DNA of 64,000 nucleotides, taken from Alphaproteobacteria bacterium. GTDB lineage: Bacteria; Pseudomonadota; Alphaproteobacteria; Rs-D84. Of the stretch, positions 1-64,000 are shown in pieces. The notes beneath the pieces were generated by a model. That model had not been told where the DNA came from. It was given only the letters and a program-made list of their open reading frames with translations, and made no database searches. The stretch covers positions 25,103 to 89,102 of the forward strand of contig JBKSMS010000012.1 of NCBI GenBank assembly GCA_046881825.1, read 5' to 3'. The translations under genes were made by a program, and so were the position numbers. The number at the start of each line of letters is the position of its first letter. The stretch's first letter is position 1.

Positions 1-137
1 ATCAATTTAATCATGGCATTTTGACGAAAAGGCACACGCGGAGTCCACACATGCCCACATACCGCACATCTCACAGACGCATTAGGCATTTTATCCAAAG
101 TATATTCTGTTTTACAAAAATCACATATTATCTTCAT
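1..137 (-). CDS. Zinc-ribbon (MJ0042-type CxxC...CxxC) protein, N-terminal part; gene runs off the window
   Basis: Minus-strand ATG at 137-135 gives MKIICDFCKTEYTLDKMPNASVRCAVCGHVWTPRVPFRQNAM... This shows two CxxC pairs with the spacing typical of MJ0042-family finger-like domains. It lies 33 nt downstream of the prepilin-like gene trio on the same strand. It is absent from the ORF track because it is truncated by the window edge. Confidence 0.5.
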   Translation of the reverse strand, partial: MKIICDFCKTEYTLDKMPNASVRCAVCGHVWTPRVPFRQNAMIKL

Positions 138-170
138 CAGTTTTTCCTTTGATATTTCTTATAGCATAAA

Positions 171-1490
171 TTATTTCAAATTCAACACTTCATATTTAGC
201 CCGAATTTGTTCCTGCATACTGTTTATACCGTTTATATAATCACCAACTGTGGCATTTACATTAGCAACGATACCACTAAATATTGTTGTCGCTGAAGTT
301 CCAGGAACCGCTTCTAACCTCGCAATTTGTGATGCCATACGGTATAATTCTGGGAAATTAATATCTGCAAAACGCGCTTTCTTAGCTGCAACATCCCAAT
401 AAAACGAAGAATCTTTGGAATCTTGGATTTTTCCAGTAATCACCAATTTCGGCGTCACAGACCCTGTATACCCAACGGAAACATACGCAGCCGTAATATG
501 TCCCAGAATCAAATCCATATCCCCAATGATTTGCAATGTTGAAGATTTTCCGGCAGTCGGTGTCACTATAAAACCATTTAAAGTTAAATTATTTACATAC
601 AAATCATTAGTATAAAAATTAGAAAATTTTCCAGAATCTGCCAATGTCAATATTCCGCCCACATTCAAAGTTCTTGAATCAGATGTAAACGCACCATTTA
701 CAACAGCTGTGTTCGAAGCAAAAATCGCATCTACACTGGCACGATTTGAAAACACCAATGAATCAGCCATAATTTGACTTACTTTTAATTTTTCTTCAAA
801 TTGAGCTTTGGACGCATCAAAAAATTTTACTTTGGTTATATCATGTCCATCTAAATTCAGCGGGGACAACATTGTCGCATCACTTTCATTTTCCGAAGGA
901 AGACGCCACAAATATTCCGTATTACCGCGCATTGTTGATGTTATTCCGACCAAACCTTTTGTATCTTTGATACCGAAATCACTGGTATTACCATGGAACG
1001 CACCAAAACCACCATATGTCATATCACCTTCGATAAATCCAAATTGACCACCACCTAAATTTACTATTTCGCGTGTGCGAAGTGGGGTGATTTCGCTGTT
1101 AGACAAAATAACTATACCCTGTAATACAGATTTGTCACTTTGGTCCGCGGTTTTCAAAATACGCAACTGATAATCATCTTTGTAATTTTCAGCGATATAT
1201 TCAGGTAATCCGTAATTAACCAAATCACTTATTTTTACGCGCGATATATTTTTACCCTTTGGCTTCATCAATTCTGTTTTGTTTTCCACAATGTATCTTT
1301 CCAGTGCAGTTTGAACATTTTCCATCTGTTTTGTTATCGCAACATTTCTAGCGCGTTCCACAGCTGTTTGTTGATAGCGAAACACAAACGGAATAATTAT
1401 CGCCGCCAAAGCAATTGTCATCATCAATTCAACCAGCATTCCACCATGCTGTGTTTTATGCCAAAAAAAAGAAGTTTTTTTTCTTGTCAT
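171..1490 (-). CDS. Large prepilin-like protein C (class III signal-peptide-like N-terminus; PilV/shufflon-like or TadG-like)
   Basis: The N-terminus reads MTRKKTSFFWHKTQHG|GMLVELMMTIALAAIIIPFVF: a basic leader, Gly, Glu at +5, a hydrophobic helix and Pro at +18. An internal motif, YLWRLPSENESDATMLSPLNLDGHDITKV, recalls the PilV/shufflon constant region. The ATG at 1490 overlaps the upstream stop by 1 nt (TAATG). The ORF track alternative start is 1505. Confidence 0.6.
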   Translation of the reverse strand: MTRKKTSFFWHKTQHGGMLVELMMTIALAAIIIPFVFRYQQTAVERARNVAITKQMENVQTALERYIVENKTELMKPKGKNISRVKISDLVNYGLPEYIAENYKDDYQLRILKTADQSDKSVLQGIVILSNSEITPLRTREIVNLGGGQFGFIEGDMTYGGFGAFHGNTSDFGIKDTKGLVGITSTMRGNTEYLWRLPSENESDATMLSPLNLDGHDITKVKFFDASKAQFEEKLKVSQIMADSLVFSNRASVDAIFASNTAVVNGAFTSDSRTLNVGGILTLADSGKFSNFYTNDLYVNNLTLNGFIVTPTAGKSSTLQIIGDMDLILGHITAAYVSVGYTGSVTPKLVITGKIQDSKDSSFYWDVAAKKARFADINFPELYRMASQIARLEAVPGTSATTIFSGIVANVNATVGDYINGINSMQEQIRAKYEVLNLK

Positions 1491-2686
1491 TATTTGTTCT
1501 GCCAACCTTTCTGTATTATGTTTTTAAATTCAACTGCATCTGGGACAGATGGTATTGTTGCGCGTGTTAATATAAGCTTTGAAAAAGATGGTGGTGTTGG
1601 TGTTGGAAACAGCCAAGAACCAATTTTTAATGGTGCATCCCCAGTTAATAACAATTCGCCAGAAACCGTTAATCCAAAATTTTCAAAAAATGCTATGTCC
1701 GTAGCAGATAAATACGGGGTTAACAATTTCCCCATTGATATACCACCAAAACCACTTACTTTTTTCGCACTGCTGGATTTCAAAATTAAATTATTAGATA
1801 CATTTATTGAATTGCCTATTGTTGCCCTGTCAACAACTAATCTGCCATTTGTGGTGTATTTATTCCCATTTAGCATATCTGCGCGTATCATCTTAAATCC
1901 GTTTGTATCACCAGTCACACGCATTGAACCAACCGCCATGTTCATAGAATTCATATTTGCGCCCGCAGAAAAATAAACACTGTTCGCATCAATAACATCA
2001 GCATTTAAAAACACCGCATCAACATCTGTTATATTGGCAGAATCACCATCAATAGTGCTGACATTAAAAATGTTATAATTGTTCAAATGTAAATCGCGAT
2101 TCATTTGATTCAGATTATCTTCACCCATTGTGCCACGATGTAAAAATCTAGATTTATCCGCACCTTCAAAATCACGAGAAATTTTATAAATCAAATCACC
2201 AACATAAAAATCTTCTGGAGCGGACACAGCCCAGCTTTGAGAATAAGCAATTCCATCTTCACGCACAACCGCAGCATCTTCACCGATTTGCTTCGCGATA
2301 TTCGCTATTCTGTAAACAGATAAATCCAAATCAAAAGCCAAATAAACATCTGTGATTTCTGCGCCATTTACTTTGTATTTATCAATAAAACCACTGTGTG
2401 CCATTGGTGCTATTTCAGCAAGTTCTTCTTCACCCATTTTTATTTCCGCAACTTCATCCCATTGGGGTTGATTTATACGCAAATAATTTATAACAGAACC
2501 ACGCAAATCCACTATTTTATTTGCCGTTGCGATATCAGAAGATTCATGTGTCATGTCTATAATTTGATTATACAAAAAAGGCGATACAACAACAACGACA
2601 GCAACAGCCAATATAACCTCTGTCATTGTAGCGCCGCGTTGTGCCAATGTTATCGCGCGATTAAAATGTTTTTTACAAACAGTCAT
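1490..2686 (-). CDS. Large prepilin-like protein B
   Basis: The N-terminus reads MTVCKKHFNRAITLAQRG|ATMTEVILAVAVVVVVSPFLY, with Gly, Glu +5 and Pro +18. An internal motif is RFLHRGTMGEDNLNQMNRDLHLNNYNIFNV. The ATG at 2686 overlaps the upstream gene by 14 nt. The ORF track start at 2695 is a GTG. Confidence 0.6.
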   Translation of the reverse strand: MTVCKKHFNRAITLAQRGATMTEVILAVAVVVVVSPFLYNQIIDMTHESSDIATANKIVDLRGSVINYLRINQPQWDEVAEIKMGEEELAEIAPMAHSGFIDKYKVNGAEITDVYLAFDLDLSVYRIANIAKQIGEDAAVVREDGIAYSQSWAVSAPEDFYVGDLIYKISRDFEGADKSRFLHRGTMGEDNLNQMNRDLHLNNYNIFNVSTIDGDSANITDVDAVFLNADVIDANSVYFSAGANMNSMNMAVGSMRVTGDTNGFKMIRADMLNGNKYTTNGRLVVDRATIGNSINVSNNLILKSSSAKKVSGFGGISMGKLLTPYLSATDIAFFENFGLTVSGELLLTGDAPLKIGSWLFPTPTPPSFSKLILTRATIPSVPDAVEFKNIIQKGWQNK

Positions 2687-4055
2687 TTCTGCCACTTTTA
2701 AAACATTGTTTTATATCTATTCTTGCTTCTAATCTTTGCCAGAAAACATACTGACAAATTATGTTTTGTGCCAAAGACTTATTGTTATATGTTTCACCAA
2801 GACCTGTTATGATGTCTTTACAAGAAACCGTTTTTCCATCTGTATCCTTAGCATTTGCGATAATTTCAAAAGAATCATTGTTTATCGTATCCACATAAGC
2901 ATCTGGCAGTAAAGATGTTCCCGCAGGTCTAATATCAATCAACAAAGCCCCACTTTGCCCATTTAATAACCCATACGAAGTTTGATCACGCAACGATATG
3001 TTCGTAGCATAAATATTTTTAACTTCTATACCCATTTTTGTATTATATGACAAAGTGTCTGAATCTATATAAACATCTTGCCCACGCGAAGCATCGATGT
3101 AAGAAGCTATATCCAATCTATCTGTCGCAAAACTGAAATTATCAGCACGCACAGAACCATGAACCTGCCAATCAGATGGACCTGTGAAGCCTGTTTTTCC
3201 TTCTGCCATGGAAAATTCATGCACCGCTGCAGAATTAGATTCAAATCCACCTGCAGCGCCGAATTTAGAAATCGTCCTTAATGACAAATCACTAACATTT
3301 AATTCGCCGCGCAACAAAGACAAAGCCGAACCACCATCCGCGCTTTGAAAAACCGTTCTATTGGCATATAAATCTGATATTTTATTTTTTCCTTCGCGTC
3401 CTGATTCCAAACCATAAAGAACCAAAGTATTAAATTGCGCTGTTTCAAAAACACCATTTCGCGCAAACAAAACACCAACTTTGTCGACAGAATTATTATT
3501 CATATCTAATTCAGCCAAAAAGCCCACATTTTCATCTGTTTCTTTCTTAGACACAATATCCGAATACATTGTATCAATTGGAATATTTACTTCTATGCCA
3601 GAACCACGCAACACAGCATAAAAACCAATTCTGCGTGCCAATTCAGCCATCTGGATTCTTGATAATTTACCACCTTCGACATTTATGTATCCACGAATTC
3701 CATCTTGGTTTTTATCTATAACAAATGATAATTTTTGTTTAAAAATTGTTTCTGGCACAAATCCCAAAGGCAACCCATAATGTTCCAGTACATCAACAAA
3801 AGAATTTCCTGATAATTCTTGCTTTTTATATGGCAATTTATCTTTTTCTTCGCGCAAATAAATACGCGCAGCATTATACGCAGTTTCTATTTGTTCTGTG
3901 GCGGTATACATTTGCGCTGCAAAATCACGAGCTGACAATTTATTTGCAAAAAAAGGCATAAAAGCAAAAACCAGTGTTAATGCTAATAACGCTTGCAACA
4001 AGAAATTACCGTGTTGATTTTTCAAATAAAATCTCCCTCCTACACCGTCAATCAT
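2673..4055 (-). CDS. Large prepilin-like protein A (Gln at +5, pseudopilin-like)
   Basis: The N-terminus reads MIDGVGGRFYLKNQHG|NFLLQALLALTLVFAFMPFF, with Gly, Gln +5 and Pro +18. YGLPLGFVP is shared with protein C (YGLPEYI). Four Cys residues lie in the last 50 aa. It is the first gene of the minus-strand operon. Confidence 0.55.
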   Translation of the reverse strand: MIDGVGGRFYLKNQHGNFLLQALLALTLVFAFMPFFANKLSARDFAAQMYTATEQIETAYNAARIYLREEKDKLPYKKQELSGNSFVDVLEHYGLPLGFVPETIFKQKLSFVIDKNQDGIRGYINVEGGKLSRIQMAELARRIGFYAVLRGSGIEVNIPIDTMYSDIVSKKETDENVGFLAELDMNNNSVDKVGVLFARNGVFETAQFNTLVLYGLESGREGKNKISDLYANRTVFQSADGGSALSLLRGELNVSDLSLRTISKFGAAGGFESNSAAVHEFSMAEGKTGFTGPSDWQVHGSVRADNFSFATDRLDIASYIDASRGQDVYIDSDTLSYNTKMGIEVKNIYATNISLRDQTSYGLLNGQSGALLIDIRPAGTSLLPDAYVDTINNDSFEIIANAKDTDGKTVSCKDIITGLGETYNNKSLAQNIICQYVFWQRLEARIDIKQCFKSGRNDCL

Positions 4056-4183
4056 AGCAACTGAAAAAAATTATTGCAATCAGTTTTAAGATGTTATAAC
4101 ATGTATTCTGTTGGAACATTAAGTGATAAAAAAATTATCACTTGGTTAAGAAAAAGTATTTCCTTTATAAAAAAGAAAAGAAC

Positions 4184-4498
4184 ATGGCTAATAAAAAAAA
4201 TCAAACCCCTGTGGGACAGATGATTCAACGCTGTCATAAATGGCGTCAGAAAAGAAAACAATACATCGACCAGGCTCGTCAAACCAGTGACGAAATCGAA
4301 CGCGAACGTTTATTACAAGCGGCAGAACATTATTGTCGTATCGCTAATGAAGAACAGGCTAAAATCGATTCTTTGCGTGACCCAAAGGATAAAGCGGTCG
4401 CCGAAGAAATTGCTGAAAATTCTGAAAATACGGAACAAGGCGATTCTGGTGAAGAAGAAGAAATTGGCTTTCCTGATTTCATCACAAATTTAAAATAA
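4184..4498 (+). CDS. DUF4167-like small charged protein
   Basis: QYIDQARQTSDEIERERLLQAAEHYCRI resembles the conserved AENxxQHAEHYxRI core of alphaproteobacterial DUF4167 proteins. The tail is acidic. The ATG at 4184 is preferred over the TTG-extended ORF at 4142. Confidence 0.5.
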   Translation: MANKKNQTPVGQMIQRCHKWRQKRKQYIDQARQTSDEIERERLLQAAEHYCRIANEEQAKIDSLRDPKDKAVAEEIAENSENTEQGDSGEEEEIGFPDFITNLK

Positions 4499-4564
4499 AA
4501 TATTATCGTTTTTTAATTGAAATCGTATATTTATTTGCTATGCTTTTGACGACAAGGAAGCATT

Positions 4565-6106
4565 ATGGAAAATAATTATACTGTTTTAGCACGAAAATAC
4601 CGCAGTCAGAATTTTGAAACTCTTATTGGTCAAGATGTTTTGGTTAAAACCTTGACTACGGCTATAAATACGGGGCGCATCGCACATGCGTACATTTTCA
4701 CCGGGATACGCGGAACTGGGAAAACCAGTACTGCCCGTATTTTAGCAAAGGCTTTGAATTGTTTATCTTCGGATACAGCCACATCTAGACCATGTGGTGT
4801 GTGTGAAAATTGTCGCGCGATTGCGGCGGGTCAACATATTGATGTTATGGAAATTGACGCTGCTTCGCATACTGGTGTGGATAATATGCGCGAAATTTTA
4901 GATGCTGCGCTTTATCGGCCGACTAATGCACGATACAAGGTTTATATTATAGACGAAGTTCATATGTTATCGACCAGTGCTTTTAATGCATTGCTTAAAA
5001 CACTGGAAGAACCACCGGCACATGTGATATTTATTTTGGCTACGACAGAAATAAGAAAAGTGCCAGTCACTATTTTGTCGCGTTGCCAGCGATTTGATTT
5101 AGCACGCGTTCCTGTTGAAACATTAAAAAAACATTTTGCGTGGGTCGCAGAACAAGAAAAAATCACTTTATCAGACGAAGCCAATGAATTATTAGCACGC
5201 GCGGCAGATGGTTCTGTGCGTGACGGATTATCTTTGCTGGACCAGGCGATTGCACAAACTGGTGGTCATGTTGATGAAGGCGCGGTTCTTGATATGCTTA
5301 AACGAACAGACCGCGGCACAGTTGTTAATTTTATGAAAACCGTTCTGTCTGGTGACACCAGTGCAGCGTTAAACAAACTGGACGAAATTTATGCAAATGG
5401 GGCAGATTTAACAATGTTGCTTAACGACATGATGGAATGGACACATTGGGCAACGCGTATGTATCCTTCTTTGCGTTTACAAGAAGCATCGTCTTCGCCA
5501 TATACTGCGGATCAGCGCGAAACAATCAAAAAAATAAACGAAACGATATCATTAAATACTTTGTCCAGAATATGGCAGGTTATGGTTGCTGCGGTTCCTG
5601 AATTACAATCATCAAGTAATCAAAAACAATGTTTTGATATGTTGATTATACGATTGATGCATATTGCAGATATGCCGTCTATTCCAGAATTGTTAAAACA
5701 AGATTCTATCAAACAGGAAGAAAACAAATCTGAAAAAGCAGCGCCAGTTGCACCAGAAAAATCACAATATATTGATATAAAAAGTGCGAATGAATTGGTA
5801 AACGCATTACAAAATGCACGCGAATTATTGCTGTATTCTTATGTCAGTTCTAATTTGGAAATTCTGGAATTTGAAAATGGAAAAATAAAATATTTTGACA
5901 GACAAAACGATAAAAGTTTTCCACAAAAATTGACTTTGTGGTTAAAGGATAATACTGGTAAAAATTGGACACTTGAAATAACAAGTGAAGATCCAAAACA
6001 AGAAACAATTTCTGAACACAAAAAATCTGAAATCGCGGCGGATCCTATGGTGGCTGATGCGATGAATTTATTTGAAGGTGCAGAAATCGTTGGTGTATCT
6101 AAATAA
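4565..6106 (+). CDS. dnaX: DNA polymerase III subunit gamma/tau
   Basis: YRSQNFETLIGQD, Walker A GIRGTGKTSTARILAK, a Zn module CGVCENC, YIIDEVHMLS and SRCQRFDL are all present. Confidence 0.95.
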   Translation: MENNYTVLARKYRSQNFETLIGQDVLVKTLTTAINTGRIAHAYIFTGIRGTGKTSTARILAKALNCLSSDTATSRPCGVCENCRAIAAGQHIDVMEIDAASHTGVDNMREILDAALYRPTNARYKVYIIDEVHMLSTSAFNALLKTLEEPPAHVIFILATTEIRKVPVTILSRCQRFDLARVPVETLKKHFAWVAEQEKITLSDEANELLARAADGSVRDGLSLLDQAIAQTGGHVDEGAVLDMLKRTDRGTVVNFMKTVLSGDTSAALNKLDEIYANGADLTMLLNDMMEWTHWATRMYPSLRLQEASSSPYTADQRETIKKINETISLNTLSRIWQVMVAAVPELQSSSNQKQCFDMLIIRLMHIADMPSIPELLKQDSIKQEENKSEKAAPVAPEKSQYIDIKSANELVNALQNARELLLYSYVSSNLEILEFENGKIKYFDRQNDKSFPQKLTLWLKDNTGKNWTLEITSEDPKQETISEHKKSEIAADPMVADAMNLFEGAEIVGVSK

Positions 6107-6131: not shown

Positions 6132-6587
6132 ATGAGAGAGCAATCCGGGCGTTCATTAATAGAAATTGTCGGTGTTTTGGCGATTGGTGCAATCATGATA
6201 TCTGCGACATACAGCATATATCATTCAGCAAATGAAAACCAAAAACGGCTTGTTGCCGGCGAAGAATTAAAAGATATTGCTCAAAAGACTCATATTTTGT
6301 TGAATCATTCAGGGTATACAAATGTGTCTGTTGATTATTTAATCGAAGCTGGTGTTATAAATAATGATCGGGCACCAGCTGGTGGTAAAGACTGGTCCGT
6401 CACCAGCAATTATGAAGGCGATGAATTTTCAATAAATTTAGTGGATTTATCTTTCGAAGAATGTGCTTACTTTACAACAAAGAAATTTGATTGGGTCGAA
6501 TATTTGGTTGTTAATGGATATGATACATCAGATTCTTCGTATTGTATGAAAACTGGCGGAAACATAGTATCGTTTTTTGTAAAATAA
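6132..6587 (+). CDS. Type IV pilin-like protein (short leader)
   Basis: MREQSG|RSLIEIVGVLAIGAIMISATY has a 6-aa leader, Gly, Glu +5 and a hydrophobic helix. A C-terminal Cys pair (EEC...SYC) fits a pilin disulfide loop. The ATG at 6132 follows AAAGGGCG and lies after the dnaX stop. Confidence 0.7.
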   Translation: MREQSGRSLIEIVGVLAIGAIMISATYSIYHSANENQKRLVAGEELKDIAQKTHILLNHSGYTNVSVDYLIEAGVINNDRAPAGGKDWSVTSNYEGDEFSINLVDLSFEECAYFTTKKFDWVEYLVVNGYDTSDSSYCMKTGGNIVSFFVK

Positions 6588-17425: not shown

Positions 17426-18730
17426 TTAATTTTTCAACATGTTTGGATTATTATCATCTGATTTTCTTGGGGCTGTTATACTAATTCCATCTAATAACCG
17501 AAAACATTTGCCTTCGTAATCTACATTGAAACCCTCCATACATTGACATTTACCCCCAATCCAATTACCACCACTGTCTTTACACTTAAATTTTTTTGTT
17601 TCTTGGGGAACATTGGTTGTTGTTTTTGTCACAGAACCATTACCCTGCCCGCTGGCTGATGTTCCAGATTTATCTGTTGACAAATTTTTATTGTTGTTGT
17701 TGATGTTCGAAGATGTTATGGAAACATCTGACAAATCTATTTCTTCATATTCTGATTCAATGCACCCCTCAGAATCATCCCAAATAGAAAGTCCCGGACA
17801 CAAACATGTGTTATATTGGTCATCCCAATCACCCAAAGTCATATAACATTTATCTTCCGCGTTATATTCGATATTATTATTACCGTTACTATTGCCATCA
17901 CTATTATTATTAGAATTTGACGAATTTTTATTGCTGACGGGACCGGTAGATAATGATGGACATTGCCCCATAAAATTAGCGGTACCATACAAACAGTAAC
18001 ATGTACCAGGGACAGCGGAAATTCCACCAGAATTTTTACAATTTTCTGTGAAGGTATCAACCGCAACATCTGTGCTATCTAAAAACTTTGCTTCTTCAAT
18101 CTCATTAAACAAATGCGTTCCGCATTCTTTATCCGTTACTGCCGCTTTAAAGACCCCCTGTAAAAAATCATCTACACCATCACAATCTTTGAATTTTGTG
18201 CCTTTTTTGCATGCAAACCTATAACCGTGCCATATTATACCACCATCTTCATCTACGACTTCTTCTAACAAGTCGTCTAATTCTTCTTTTAGTCCAGTAT
18301 AAGAATCTTGATATTTGCTTGGAATTCCGACTGTGAATTCCCCGTTAACCCGGTTAATACATTGTTGTTGGTTTTCGTTTATCGGTGCAGGGGTCGGATT
18401 TGATTTCTTTTGTTGTTTTTTTGCAATTTTTTCTTTTTCGTCTGCAATTGCTTTTTCTTTTGCTTCTATGTCTTTGTTCTTTTTAGCAATGGCATCATCG
18501 TATTCTTGTAATTTTTGTGCTTCGGCTATATTACCCGCAACACCAACCGCGGTAAGACCTATCGTGGAAAGCCCCGCTATCTTTAAGCCCTTTGACGAAC
18601 CCATACATTTTTCCAACTCTTCCATCTTGCGTTGTTTTTCGCGAACCAGTTGTGTATAGCGCGCCCCGGCCCCAAAACAAATATTTGGCGCAATCGCAAC
18701 AATCAAGCCAAGCAAAAAATATTTTTTCAT
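17426..18730 (-). CDS. Secreted cysteine-rich protein with coiled-coil, Asn/Ser-rich linkers and EGF-like CxC modules
   Basis: The signal peptide is MKKYFLLGLIVAIAPNICFGAG, followed by a Gly/Ala hydrophobic stretch and a Lys/Glu coiled coil. There are three CxC modules. The last, CQCMEGFNVDYEGKC, fits C-x-C-x2-G-F-x7-C. Poly-N/S linkers are present. Confidence 0.6.
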   Translation of the reverse strand: MKKYFLLGLIVAIAPNICFGAGARYTQLVREKQRKMEELEKCMGSSKGLKIAGLSTIGLTAVGVAGNIAEAQKLQEYDDAIAKKNKDIEAKEKAIADEKEKIAKKQQKKSNPTPAPINENQQQCINRVNGEFTVGIPSKYQDSYTGLKEELDDLLEEVVDEDGGIIWHGYRFACKKGTKFKDCDGVDDFLQGVFKAAVTDKECGTHLFNEIEEAKFLDSTDVAVDTFTENCKNSGGISAVPGTCYCLYGTANFMGQCPSLSTGPVSNKNSSNSNNNSDGNSNGNNNIEYNAEDKCYMTLGDWDDQYNTCLCPGLSIWDDSEGCIESEYEEIDLSDVSITSSNINNNNKNLSTDKSGTSASGQGNGSVTKTTTNVPQETKKFKCKDSGGNWIGGKCQCMEGFNVDYEGKCFRLLDGISITAPRKSDDNNPNMLKN

Positions 18731-18753
18731 GTCATAAACCCTCAAAATTTTAT

Positions 18754-19146
18754 TTAATTTGTTTTTTTCAATTCGTTTAATTCATCATTTTTGGCTTTTA
18801 ATTCTAATTTTTTAGATTCTAATTCACTTTTTTTGTCGCCTATTTTAACACCTTGGACAGCAGCAGCAGTTCCAGTTGCGACAACCCCAACGGCACCAAT
18901 TACCGTTGCAGCAATCCAACCCTTTTTCTGCTTCTTACATTTGGCGATTTCTTCATCCAAAATACGAATATCTTCTTGTAATGTGGCGATGTCTGCAGCC
19001 TCTTCAGCCCCTATTACTTCTTCGCCACCGTTGGCATCAATAATCTGTTGCTCATAACGTTGTGCGGTAGAATTTTTTATCTTTACAGCCCCATAGGCTT
19101 CAAATACAAACACACCAATTATTACGGGTATAATATATTTTTTCAC
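18754..19146 (-). CDS. Small secreted/membrane protein sharing the N-terminal module of the 17426-18730 protein
   Basis: A GTG start sits 5 nt after the GGGGGGA SD. The signal peptide is MKKYIIPVIIGVFVFEAYGA. KCKKQKKGWIAATVIGAVGVVATG parallels KCMGSSKGLKIAGLSTIGLTAVGVAGN of the neighbour. The tail is coiled-coil. Confidence 0.55.
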   Translation of the reverse strand: MKKYIIPVIIGVFVFEAYGAVKIKNSTAQRYEQQIIDANGGEEVIGAEEAADIATLQEDIRILDEEIAKCKKQKKGWIAATVIGAVGVVATGTAAAVQGVKIGDKKSELESKKLELKAKNDELNELKKTN

Positions 19147-63319: not shown

Positions 63320-64000
63320 ATGAATTTACTTATCGTAGAATCACCATCAAAAGCAAAAACTATTGAAAAATATCTGGGCTCTGGTTGGCGCGTTATTGCG
63401 TCTGTTGGGCATGTTCGTGATTTAGTCCCTGAAAATGGCAGTGTGGATGTAAAACATAATTTTAAACCTAAATGGCAAATAATGCCGGGCAAGGAAAAAC
63501 AAATTAAACTGATAATTGATGAAATTAAAAAAGCTGACAATGTATATTTGGCATCTGATCCTGACCGCGAAGGTGAAGCCATAGCATGGCATATAAACGA
63601 TATTTTAAAAGCACGCGATGTTCTAAAAGGAAAAAATGTATATCGTGTTGCTTTTCATGAAATAACAAAAAATGCTGTGCTTGATGCTATAAAGAATCCT
63701 CGTGAAATTGATAATAACTTGGTTGATGCTTATCTTGTTCGCCGTATTCTTGATTATTTAATTGGATTTGGAATTTCACCATTACTTTGGAAAAGAAATC
63801 TTGGTAAATCTGCGGGACGCGTTCAAAGTGTTGCTGTGAAATTGGTTGTTGATCGTGAAAAAGAAATTGAAAAATTTAACGCAACAGAATATTGGAGTGT
63901 TATCGCAAACTGCAATTTTAACAAGACGAATTTTGATGCTAATTTGATAAAATTTGATGGGAAAAAAATTGAAAAAATGACCCTTGAAAATAAATCAATG
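63320..64000 (+). CDS. topA: DNA topoisomerase I, N-terminal part; runs off the window
   Basis: MNLLIVESPSKAKTIEKYLG and the TOPRIM motif LASDPDREGEAIAWH are present. It is open to the window end and absent from the ORF track because no stop is reached. Confidence 0.93.
   Translation, partial: MNLLIVESPSKAKTIEKYLGSGWRVIASVGHVRDLVPENGSVDVKHNFKPKWQIMPGKEKQIKLIIDEIKKADNVYLASDPDREGEAIAWHINDILKARDVLKGKNVYRVAFHEITKNAVLDAIKNPREIDNNLVDAYLVRRILDYLIGFGISPLLWKRNLGKSAGRVQSVAVKLVVDREKEIEKFNATEYWSVIANCNFNKTNFDANLIKFDGKKIEKMTLENKSM

Follow-up and report, generated by a model that had tools for sequence, protein, structure and literature searches.

What do three consecutive genes for large, prepilin-like proteins do in a reduced alphaproteobacterial genome, at a locus surrounded by housekeeping genes and with no pilus assembly machine in its vicinity? 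These genes, here called A, B and C (together, the trio), occupy the minus strand at the beginning of a 64,000-nucleotide (nt) stretch of DNA from a bacterium of the order Rs-D84 (assembly GCA_046881825.1, contig JBKSMS010000012.1, positions 25,103 to 89,102), which in its entirety is referred to as the window. The host lineage within the Alphaproteobacteria is that of Candidatus Enterousia, uncultured gut bacteria with genomes below 1 Mb; the Enterousia metagenome-assembled genome (MAG) 101_22-10 amounts to 0.90 Mb in 32 contigs at 94% completeness, and the lineage, according to its description, has no tricarboxylic acid cycle, no respiration and no flagella, lacks part of glycolysis, and may depend on partners (PMC12306168). 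The answer that we consider probable, if well short of certain, is that A, B and C form a heterotrimeric PilV-like tip on a filament made of a 151-amino-acid (aa) pilin, with the C-terminal halves of the three proteins giving contact specificity.

The trio and its relationship to PilV

All three proteins share one N-terminal design, in which a polar leader ends in Gly, the residue at +5 is Glu or Gln, an uncharged hydrophobic stretch follows, and Pro stands at +18. The sequences read NQHG/NFLLQ..MP in A (leader MKNQHG, Gln+5), AQRG/ATMTE..SP in B (18-aa leader ending in QRG, Glu+5) and TQHG/GMLVE..IP in C (16-aa leader ending in QHG, Glu+5), the slash marking the predicted cleavage site. Orthologues retain this design almost without exception: Gly-1 is kept in 91 of 91 for A, 88 of 89 for B and 79 of 79 for C; the +5 residue is kept throughout (Gln in 91/91 for A, Glu in 89/89 for B and 79/79 for C); and Pro+18 is found in every B and C orthologue (89/89 and 79/79) and in 89 of the 91 for A. 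Scanned for this pattern in all six frames, the window with both flanks (10 kb on each side, on the 97-kb contig JBKSNC010000022.1 of assembly GCA_046881865.1) gave only four such segments, i.e., A, B, C and a smaller gene at 6132-6587, all within 6.6 kb; the design is thus specific, and not something to which AT-rich membrane segments give rise by themselves. B, C and the 151-aa product of the smaller gene carry the features that define a type IV pilin (a leader ending in Gly-1, about 20 hydrophobic residues and Glu+5), with A having Gln at +5, and a prepilin-type architecture of A, B and C is supported at the level of sequence and by its strict conservation. Public names of C orthologues include "Tfp pilus assembly protein PilE" and "type II secretion system protein", and phmmer/hmmsearch comparison with PDB sequences gave C a weak match, between its N-terminal helix and PilA-N geopilin.

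The initial annotation had described three minus-strand open reading frames (ORFs) with a 14-nt overlap and a TAATG overlap, and this is the arrangement that we find: A and B overlap at 2673-2686, and the stop codon of B and the start codon of C share TAATG at 1490. The ORF of A can also be read from an ATG at 4055, which would yield 460 aa. The most likely start is the TTG at 4025, because an AGGAGG lies upstream of it, Met stands at this codon in 40 of 91 orthologues, and most orthologues are called at 450 aa. The leader of A, MKNQHG, would then be 6 aa long; the proposed Gly-1, Glu/Gln+5 and Pro+18 design therefore applies to all three proteins, and the proposed leader length of 16-18 aa does not.

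PilV, or Shufflon_N, is known chiefly from plasmids, as an adhesin whose variety is generated by a shufflon. It is a minor pilin and the adhesin of IncI pili (PMC9045228). A link between the trio and the constant region of IncI PilV had been proposed in the initial annotation, and profile comparison bears it out: a 34-residue PilV peptide agrees at 100% identity with annotated IncI PilV, and a profile of seven diverse PilV/Shufflon_N proteins (from IncI1, IncI2, IncK, another Salmonella plasmid, Serratia and Xanthomonas, together with protein P0464) aligned in hhalign with the C family at a probability of 98.4% (E 9.6e-15, 259 columns), with the B family at 95.8% (E 7.3e-9, 235 columns) and with the A family at 93.9% (E 1.6e-7, 192 columns). 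The alignments are collinear, running from the leader through a globular domain to the LYR..LN.M..L.M..N.I.NV motif, and are not confined to the hydrophobic helix. This PilV-type mid-protein motif reads RFLHRGTMGEDNLNQMNRDLHLNNYNIFNV in B and YLWRLPSENESDATMLSPLNLDGHDITKV in C, with a weaker copy, FLAELDMNNNSVDKVGV, in A. Searched against 1.84 billion representative proteins, the B profile reached 108 clusters only, including P0464, P0467 and P0454, which in turn score 1.1e-25, 1.9e-5 and 1.5e-3 with Shufflon_N; its match to P0464 (E 5.6e-4) lies in the motif region, outside the hydrophobic helix. The PilV-profile alignments and the B-profile search agree, and A, B and C thus belong to the PilV superfamily, as distant members that the curated model does not recognise.

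The description of A, B and C as paralogues needs a similar qualification as to method. Pairwise BLASTP detects only the first ~90 aa (A-C, 1e-7; B-C, 4e-4; A-B, not significant), so that paralogy is weakly visible at that level; profile comparison extends it over ~200-250 residues including the motif, with probabilities of 91.6% for C-A, 33% for C-B and 17% for B-A. The C-terminal parts, in which the initial annotation saw beta-solenoid-like segments, consist to 32-36% of Asn, Gly, Ser and Thr, have confidence below 50 in AlphaFold2 (AF2) models, and showed no repeats at the DNA level. In A, four invariant Cys are located within the C-terminal 50 residues.

The trio is an ancient, order-conserved, chromosomal module. 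In Rs-D84, the gene order runs IF-2, Skp, OmpA, small pilin, DnaX and DUF4167, then A, B, C, a zinc-ribbon gene, a 156-aa "FPCYG" protein and RluD, and this arrangement is identical in about 36 species-level genomes. BLASTP also recovered the order A-like, B-like, C-like in distant MAGs of low-GC Alphaproteobacteria, whose sources are springs, sediments, and the guts of animals or humans, and in every genome examined the neighbours of the trio are chromosomal housekeeping genes (IF-2, Skp, DnaX, RluD). A tblastn search of B against the 72,556 plasmids of PLSDB gave no match. Purifying selection acts on the trio and on the small pilin, and the genes are functional: dN/dS is 0.14-0.21 for A, 0.15-0.23 for B and 0.13-0.23 for the trio overall, with 0.10-0.23 for the four pilin genes against 0.07-0.09 for DnaX, values that are rough given dS above 1.

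A shufflon at the trio was considered and rejected, because there are no sfx-type repeats and no Rci recombinase nearby; positions 1-4600 hold only short, chance-level repeats, none of them sfx-like, and no recombinase gene is found in the neighbourhood. As a separate observation, another alphaproteobacterial MAG encodes a 971-aa PilV-like protein (locus L033, 9971-12886; GSMMVEALAML.., LN.M motif) inside a flagellar cluster, with FliP-like and FliO-like genes adjoining.

A small pilin beside the trio

The claim that no pilus machinery lies nearby holds for the ATPase, platform, secretin and peptidase, none of which is encoded in the window; what had been overlooked is a small pilin gene ~2 kb from the trio, between dnaX and the gene of an OmpA-family lipoprotein (Table 1). 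Its product is canonical except for Arg at +1, has two invariant Cys ~25 residues apart near the C terminus, and scores 17.0 bits (E 0.0045) with Pfam N_methyl, below the cut-off of 21.2. The gene is present in 42 genomes.

The small pilin and the trio diverge in step. Across 29 genomes, and with housekeeping divergence controlled for through DnaX and RluD identity, the partial r is 0.77 (p 1e-6), or 0.60 without the outlier L079, a statistic that ignores phylogenetic non-independence and is indicative only. Neither the OmpA gene (partial r 0.02) nor the zinc-ribbon gene (0.14, not significant) co-diverges with the trio. In L079, one Enterousia genome, identity to the window amounts to 66-90% for the flanking genes, as against 35-38% for A, B and C and 48% for the small pilin. 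There, the PilV-like N-terminal halves of A, B and C retain ~50% identity and the C-terminal halves ~25%; this constant-N/variable-C pattern resembles that of PilV, and has arisen via lineage divergence, not DNA inversion. At the same locus (L079, 3536-7932), C is a 522-aa protein with a new Cys-rich C terminus, and A is split into ORFs of 217 and 266 aa through a frameshift, an assembly error or pseudogenisation.

Type IV filaments are primed by a minor-pilin tip complex that is capped by a subunit without Glu5, the residue that pairs with, and neutralises, the adjacent subunit's N-terminal amine, and in type IVb pili the four-protein core is replaced by fewer, large minor pilins, e.g., the tip-located CofB trimer (PMC10191384). 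By this logic, A, B and C would be inserted in the inner membrane through their N-terminal helix, and a prepilin peptidase would cut them after the invariant Gly. The three processed proteins would join as a heterotrimeric priming/tip complex, with A (Gln+5) as its capping subunit, and this complex would seed a type IV filament of the 151-aa pilin, put together by an assembly machine encoded elsewhere. The lineage-variable C-terminal halves, carried at the tip, would contact the ligand on a partner cell or surface. Enterousia and Rs-D84 are thought to live off partner cells (PMC12306168), and no candidate for an attachment organelle in these bacteria is so far more concrete than the strictly conserved, fast-evolving trio with its matching small pilin.

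Table 1. Positions of the trio, the small pilin and adjoining features in the window
Feature	Position	Strand	Remarks
Gene A, candidate PilV-like large minor pilin	2673..4025	-	450 aa from TTG 4025
Gene B, candidate PilV-like large minor pilin	1490..2686	-	398 aa
Gene C, candidate PilV-like large minor pilin	171..1490	-	439 aa
Operon upstream region	4026..4100	-	AGGAGG ribosome-binding site before the TTG of A; promoter-like hexamers
Small type IV (pseudo)pilin, candidate major subunit	6132..6587	+	151 aa; leader MREQSG, then RSLIE; Glu+5
Zinc-ribbon gene, N-terminal part	1..137	-	MJ0042-type CxxC..CxxC, transmembrane segment, beta-rich domain; full protein 169 aa

Points against a tip complex, and other explanations

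A number of observations weigh against a PilV-like tip complex. The profile searches that the initial annotation had recommended as a check, with N-methylation, TadE and Shufflon_N models, gave nothing at threshold on A, B or C. Scans of Pfam and NCBIfam assigned no family to any of the three; the curated N-methylation models (Pfam N_methyl PF07963 and those of NCBIfam) and Shufflon_N (PF04917), whose gathering score is not reached, gave no match at E up to 1. The +1 residues are atypical in all four proteins (Asn in A, Ala in B, Gly in C, Arg in the small pilin). The A-like gene has Gln+5 in the distant loci L035-L040 and Glu+5 in the distant L029-L032, so that a capping role of A would not be universal. 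Inside the genus, the N- and C-terminal halves are conserved to the same degree, unlike what is seen in a hypervariable adhesin, and the co-divergence with the small pilin carries the phylogenetic caveat given above. Furthermore, the only genome paper on the lineage mentions type IV pili in a different lineage and does not report them for Rs-D84 (PMC12306168).

The search for an assembly machine weighs on the same side. No peptidase A24, T2SSE, T2SSF or secretin domain occurs in the called genes of the window and flanks (~84 kb), and more than 60 loci, with over 1.2 Mb of related sequence covered, encode no PilB/GspE ATPase, PilC/GspF platform protein, A24 peptidase or secretin up to 10 kb away from the trio or the small pilin. 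Likewise, phmmer searches with eight IncI Pil proteins (PilM, PilN, PilO, PilP, PilQ, PilR, PilS and PilU) against six-frame translations of about 1.3 Mb of fetched loci gave no match. The searches covered ~9% of this genome, plus the same gene neighbourhoods in other genomes; the machine is thus unlinked to the trio, rather than shown to be absent from the genome.

Structure prediction was weak overall. Mean AF2 confidence (predicted local distance difference test, pLDDT) is poor, at 47 for C and 56 for A, owing to shallow alignments in which all members are at least 70% identical. Foldseek with these weak models of C and A (against the PDB twice and viral structures once) found no match at E up to 0.001. 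With models this poor, and for that reason, we regard the structural route as uninformative rather than negative. The better parts of the A model are an N-terminal domain (17-160, pLDDT 70-89), in which a 54-residue helix (17-70) leads into strands and two short helices, and a C-terminal module of ~70 residues (385-455, pLDDT ~80) that holds the four invariant Cys; the predicted N-terminal topology is compatible with a pilin head domain.

Among other explanations, the four proteins could belong to a type II secretion-like system and make up its pseudopilus, a short structure in the periplasm with the small pilin as major subunit and A, B and C at its tip. Such a system would drive proteins across the outer membrane, and no adhesive pilus would form on the surface. 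Reduced genomes can retain type II secretion-like systems, and one orthologue has been named "type II secretion system protein" by NCBI. A single small pilin with a minor set of which one member is without Glu5 would also fit the logic of GspG with GspH-K (PMC10191384). Set against this, all four proteins are without a match, at E up to 1, to the NCBIfam models for GspG, GspH, GspI, GspJ and GspK or to any Pfam pseudopilin model, no GspD, GspE or GspF gene was seen in the loci searched, A, B and C are far larger than pseudopilins, and lineage-specific turnover of the C-terminal halves suits exposed adhesins better, and the homology that was detected is to PilV, i.e., a pilus adhesin; we regard a pseudopilus as unlikely. 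The Tad (type IVc) pilus is a further candidate, and TadG-like pseudopilins had been offered as one identity for the trio in the initial annotation. Three consecutive genes recall tadE-tadF-tadG, the Tad system is the usual pilus in Alphaproteobacteria such as this host, and the N terminus of B (RG/ATMTE) resembles Flp/TadE processing sites. That A, B and C are TadE/TadF/TadG-type pseudopilins is nonetheless very improbable, given the lack of any match to Pfam TadE (PF07811) or related models at E up to 1, significant profile homology to Shufflon_N/PilV instead, an accompanying pilin of 151 aa with a disulfide-type C terminus in place of a Flp of 50-80 aa, and no tad or cpa gene in the window and flanks.

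A different possibility is that the filament machine has been lost and that these are orphan pilins, the four proteins being retained as uncleaved periplasmic proteins anchored in the inner membrane, or being used by a type IV secretion system. For this speak the machinery-free loci described above, the atypical +1 residues and the unmatched curated N-methylation models, as well as a genome of only 0.90 Mb from an order for which type IV pili are not reported (PMC12306168). Moreover, the contig carries the gene of a VirB4/CagE_TrbE-type ATPase of 802 aa (L028, 16349-18757), ~5 kb past window position 64000, so that a type IV secretion system is present in the genome at least in part. (Beside this gene lie a 101-aa ORF upstream, and ORFs of 226 and 204 aa without family downstream.) Minor-pilin operons, however, are commonly unlinked from their machinery, the inspected part is only ~9% of the genome, and we know of no precedent for class III pilins used by a type IV secretion system. 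The invariance of a buried Glu+5 and of Gly-1 across hundreds of orthologues, in distant lineages, would be hard to account for without peptidase recognition and filament packing. We thus find the orphan-pilin scenario quite unlikely as a whole, and judge just as doubtful its more pointed form, in which all filament machines were lost and four co-evolving pilins were kept, to be deployed by the VirB4 system or to act uncleaved at a cell-cell contact site. Deployment by a VirB4 system would echo the PilV-plus-conjugation partnership of IncI plasmids, and the significance of the locus would rise sharply if complete genomes prove to have no type IV filament machine.

Neighbouring genes and known counterparts

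Thirty-three nucleotides after C begins the zinc-ribbon gene, which is probably co-transcribed with the trio. The CxxC..CxxC gene noted earlier at 137-1 is indeed the start of a 169-aa MJ0042-type protein; its 45-aa fragment in the window scores 22.7 bits with TIGR02098 (cut-off 20.9) and 31.3 with Pfam Zn_ribbon_4 (cut-off 30.3). Its inclusion in the set, as first proposed, is opposed by synteny and co-divergence alike. In L035-L040, the zinc-ribbon/FPCYG/RluD block lies ~4 kb from the trio, behind four unrelated genes, and in L029-L032 the block is absent beside the trio; the adjacency in Enterousia is therefore best read as the loss of intervening genes. We rejected the zinc-ribbon protein as a system component on these grounds, together with its partial r of 0.14, and the gene is probably a neighbour through genome compaction. 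As to the block itself, the zinc-ribbon protein, a secreted FPCYG-motif protein of 153-165 aa and RluD are kept together from Enterousia to distant gut alphaproteobacterial MAGs; the block comprises window positions 1-137 (minus strand) together with L001 11354-13289.

On the other side of the trio, a consensus scan upstream of A found two overlapping promoter-like hexamer pairs (4097-4070 and 4079-4051); such sites are no more frequent in the region than shuffling would lead one to expect, so that the two pairs are only a plausible placement. Divergent from the trio, and kept in all Rs-D84 loci, is a gene at window 4184-4498 (plus strand); its product is small and highly charged, and matches DUF4167 below the threshold (E 2.7e-4).

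Further genes of note lie at some distance. A secreted protein of 806 aa, of no family and very rich in Cys, is encoded beyond window position 1 (L001, 13369-15789); its gene is conserved downstream of RluD in Rs-D84 genomes, and adjoins dnaX in a few more distant ones. At 7-10 kb beyond position 1, two adjacent genes (L001, 18627-21320) encode polytopic membrane proteins of 435 aa and at least 452 aa; neither matches Pfam or NCBIfam, and the VirB6/TrbL-like identity that we suspected for them is unsupported. Within the window, a 130-aa ORF at 18754-19146 (minus strand) scores 25 bits (E 1e-5) with NF033928, the family of the alpha-xenorhabdolysin binary toxin subunit A, a weak match below the cut-off of 125, and adjoins a 439-aa ORF without family at 17426-18745 (minus strand).

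Turning to known systems, the zinc-ribbon product resembles ZitP-type proteins in having an N-terminal MJ0042-type ribbon, a transmembrane segment and an extracytoplasmic domain. Unlike ZitP, it has no match to DUF3426, the C-terminal domain expected of that protein. ZitP is linked to pilus biogenesis in Caulobacter.

The core minor-pilin sets, i.e., GspH-I-J-K and PilH-I-J-K/FimU-PilVWX, share with the trio a coupled minor-pilin operon, machinery that is unlinked, and one member without Glu5, which in these sets caps the tip complex (PMC10191384). In contrast to these sets, the trio comprises three genes rather than four, its proteins are 2-3 times larger, and the two have no detectable sequence relationship; the homology of the trio points to the type IVb PilV lineage instead.

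A second point of reference is CofB/TcpB, large type IVb minor pilins in which a pilin domain is joined to beta-rich C-terminal domains, and whose trimer at the tip initiates the assembly of the pilus (PMC10191384). The likeness is a functional analogy only: there is no sequence similarity, and CofB and TcpB are products of single genes that form homotrimers. Neither was retrieved by PDB-sequence profile searches with the A and C families, by phmmer with A, B and C, or by Foldseek with the poor models of A and C, and the PDB was found to hold no PilV-family structure. By analogy, the threefold stoichiometry of the CofB/TcpB tip could be filled by a heterotrimer of A, B and C; if true, this would make the trio a heterotrimeric counterpart of the homotrimeric CofB tip complex, which is a structural prediction.

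The closest counterpart is PilV itself, as represented by the IncI1, IncI2 and IncK proteins of the Shufflon_N family. Like the trio, these proteins have 400-470 aa, a leader ending in Gly, and Glu+5, and the Pro+18 of the trio recurs in IncI2 and IncK PilV sequences. By profile-profile comparison, the first 190-270 residues are homologous, including the LYR..G..LN.M.T.[IL].M..NN[IL].N[VA] motif, and in both cases the N-terminal part is constant and the C-terminal part is variable between lineages. Unlike PilV, the trio is chromosomal and consists of three distinct, ordered genes instead of one; it has no shufflon and no adjacent pilL-pilU machinery or conjugative element, and its C-terminal regions are unrelated to those of PilV. 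The PilV family is thereby widened to take in an old, chromosomal, three-gene, non-shufflon module of low-GC Alphaproteobacteria, one that is invisible to current Pfam and NCBIfam models.

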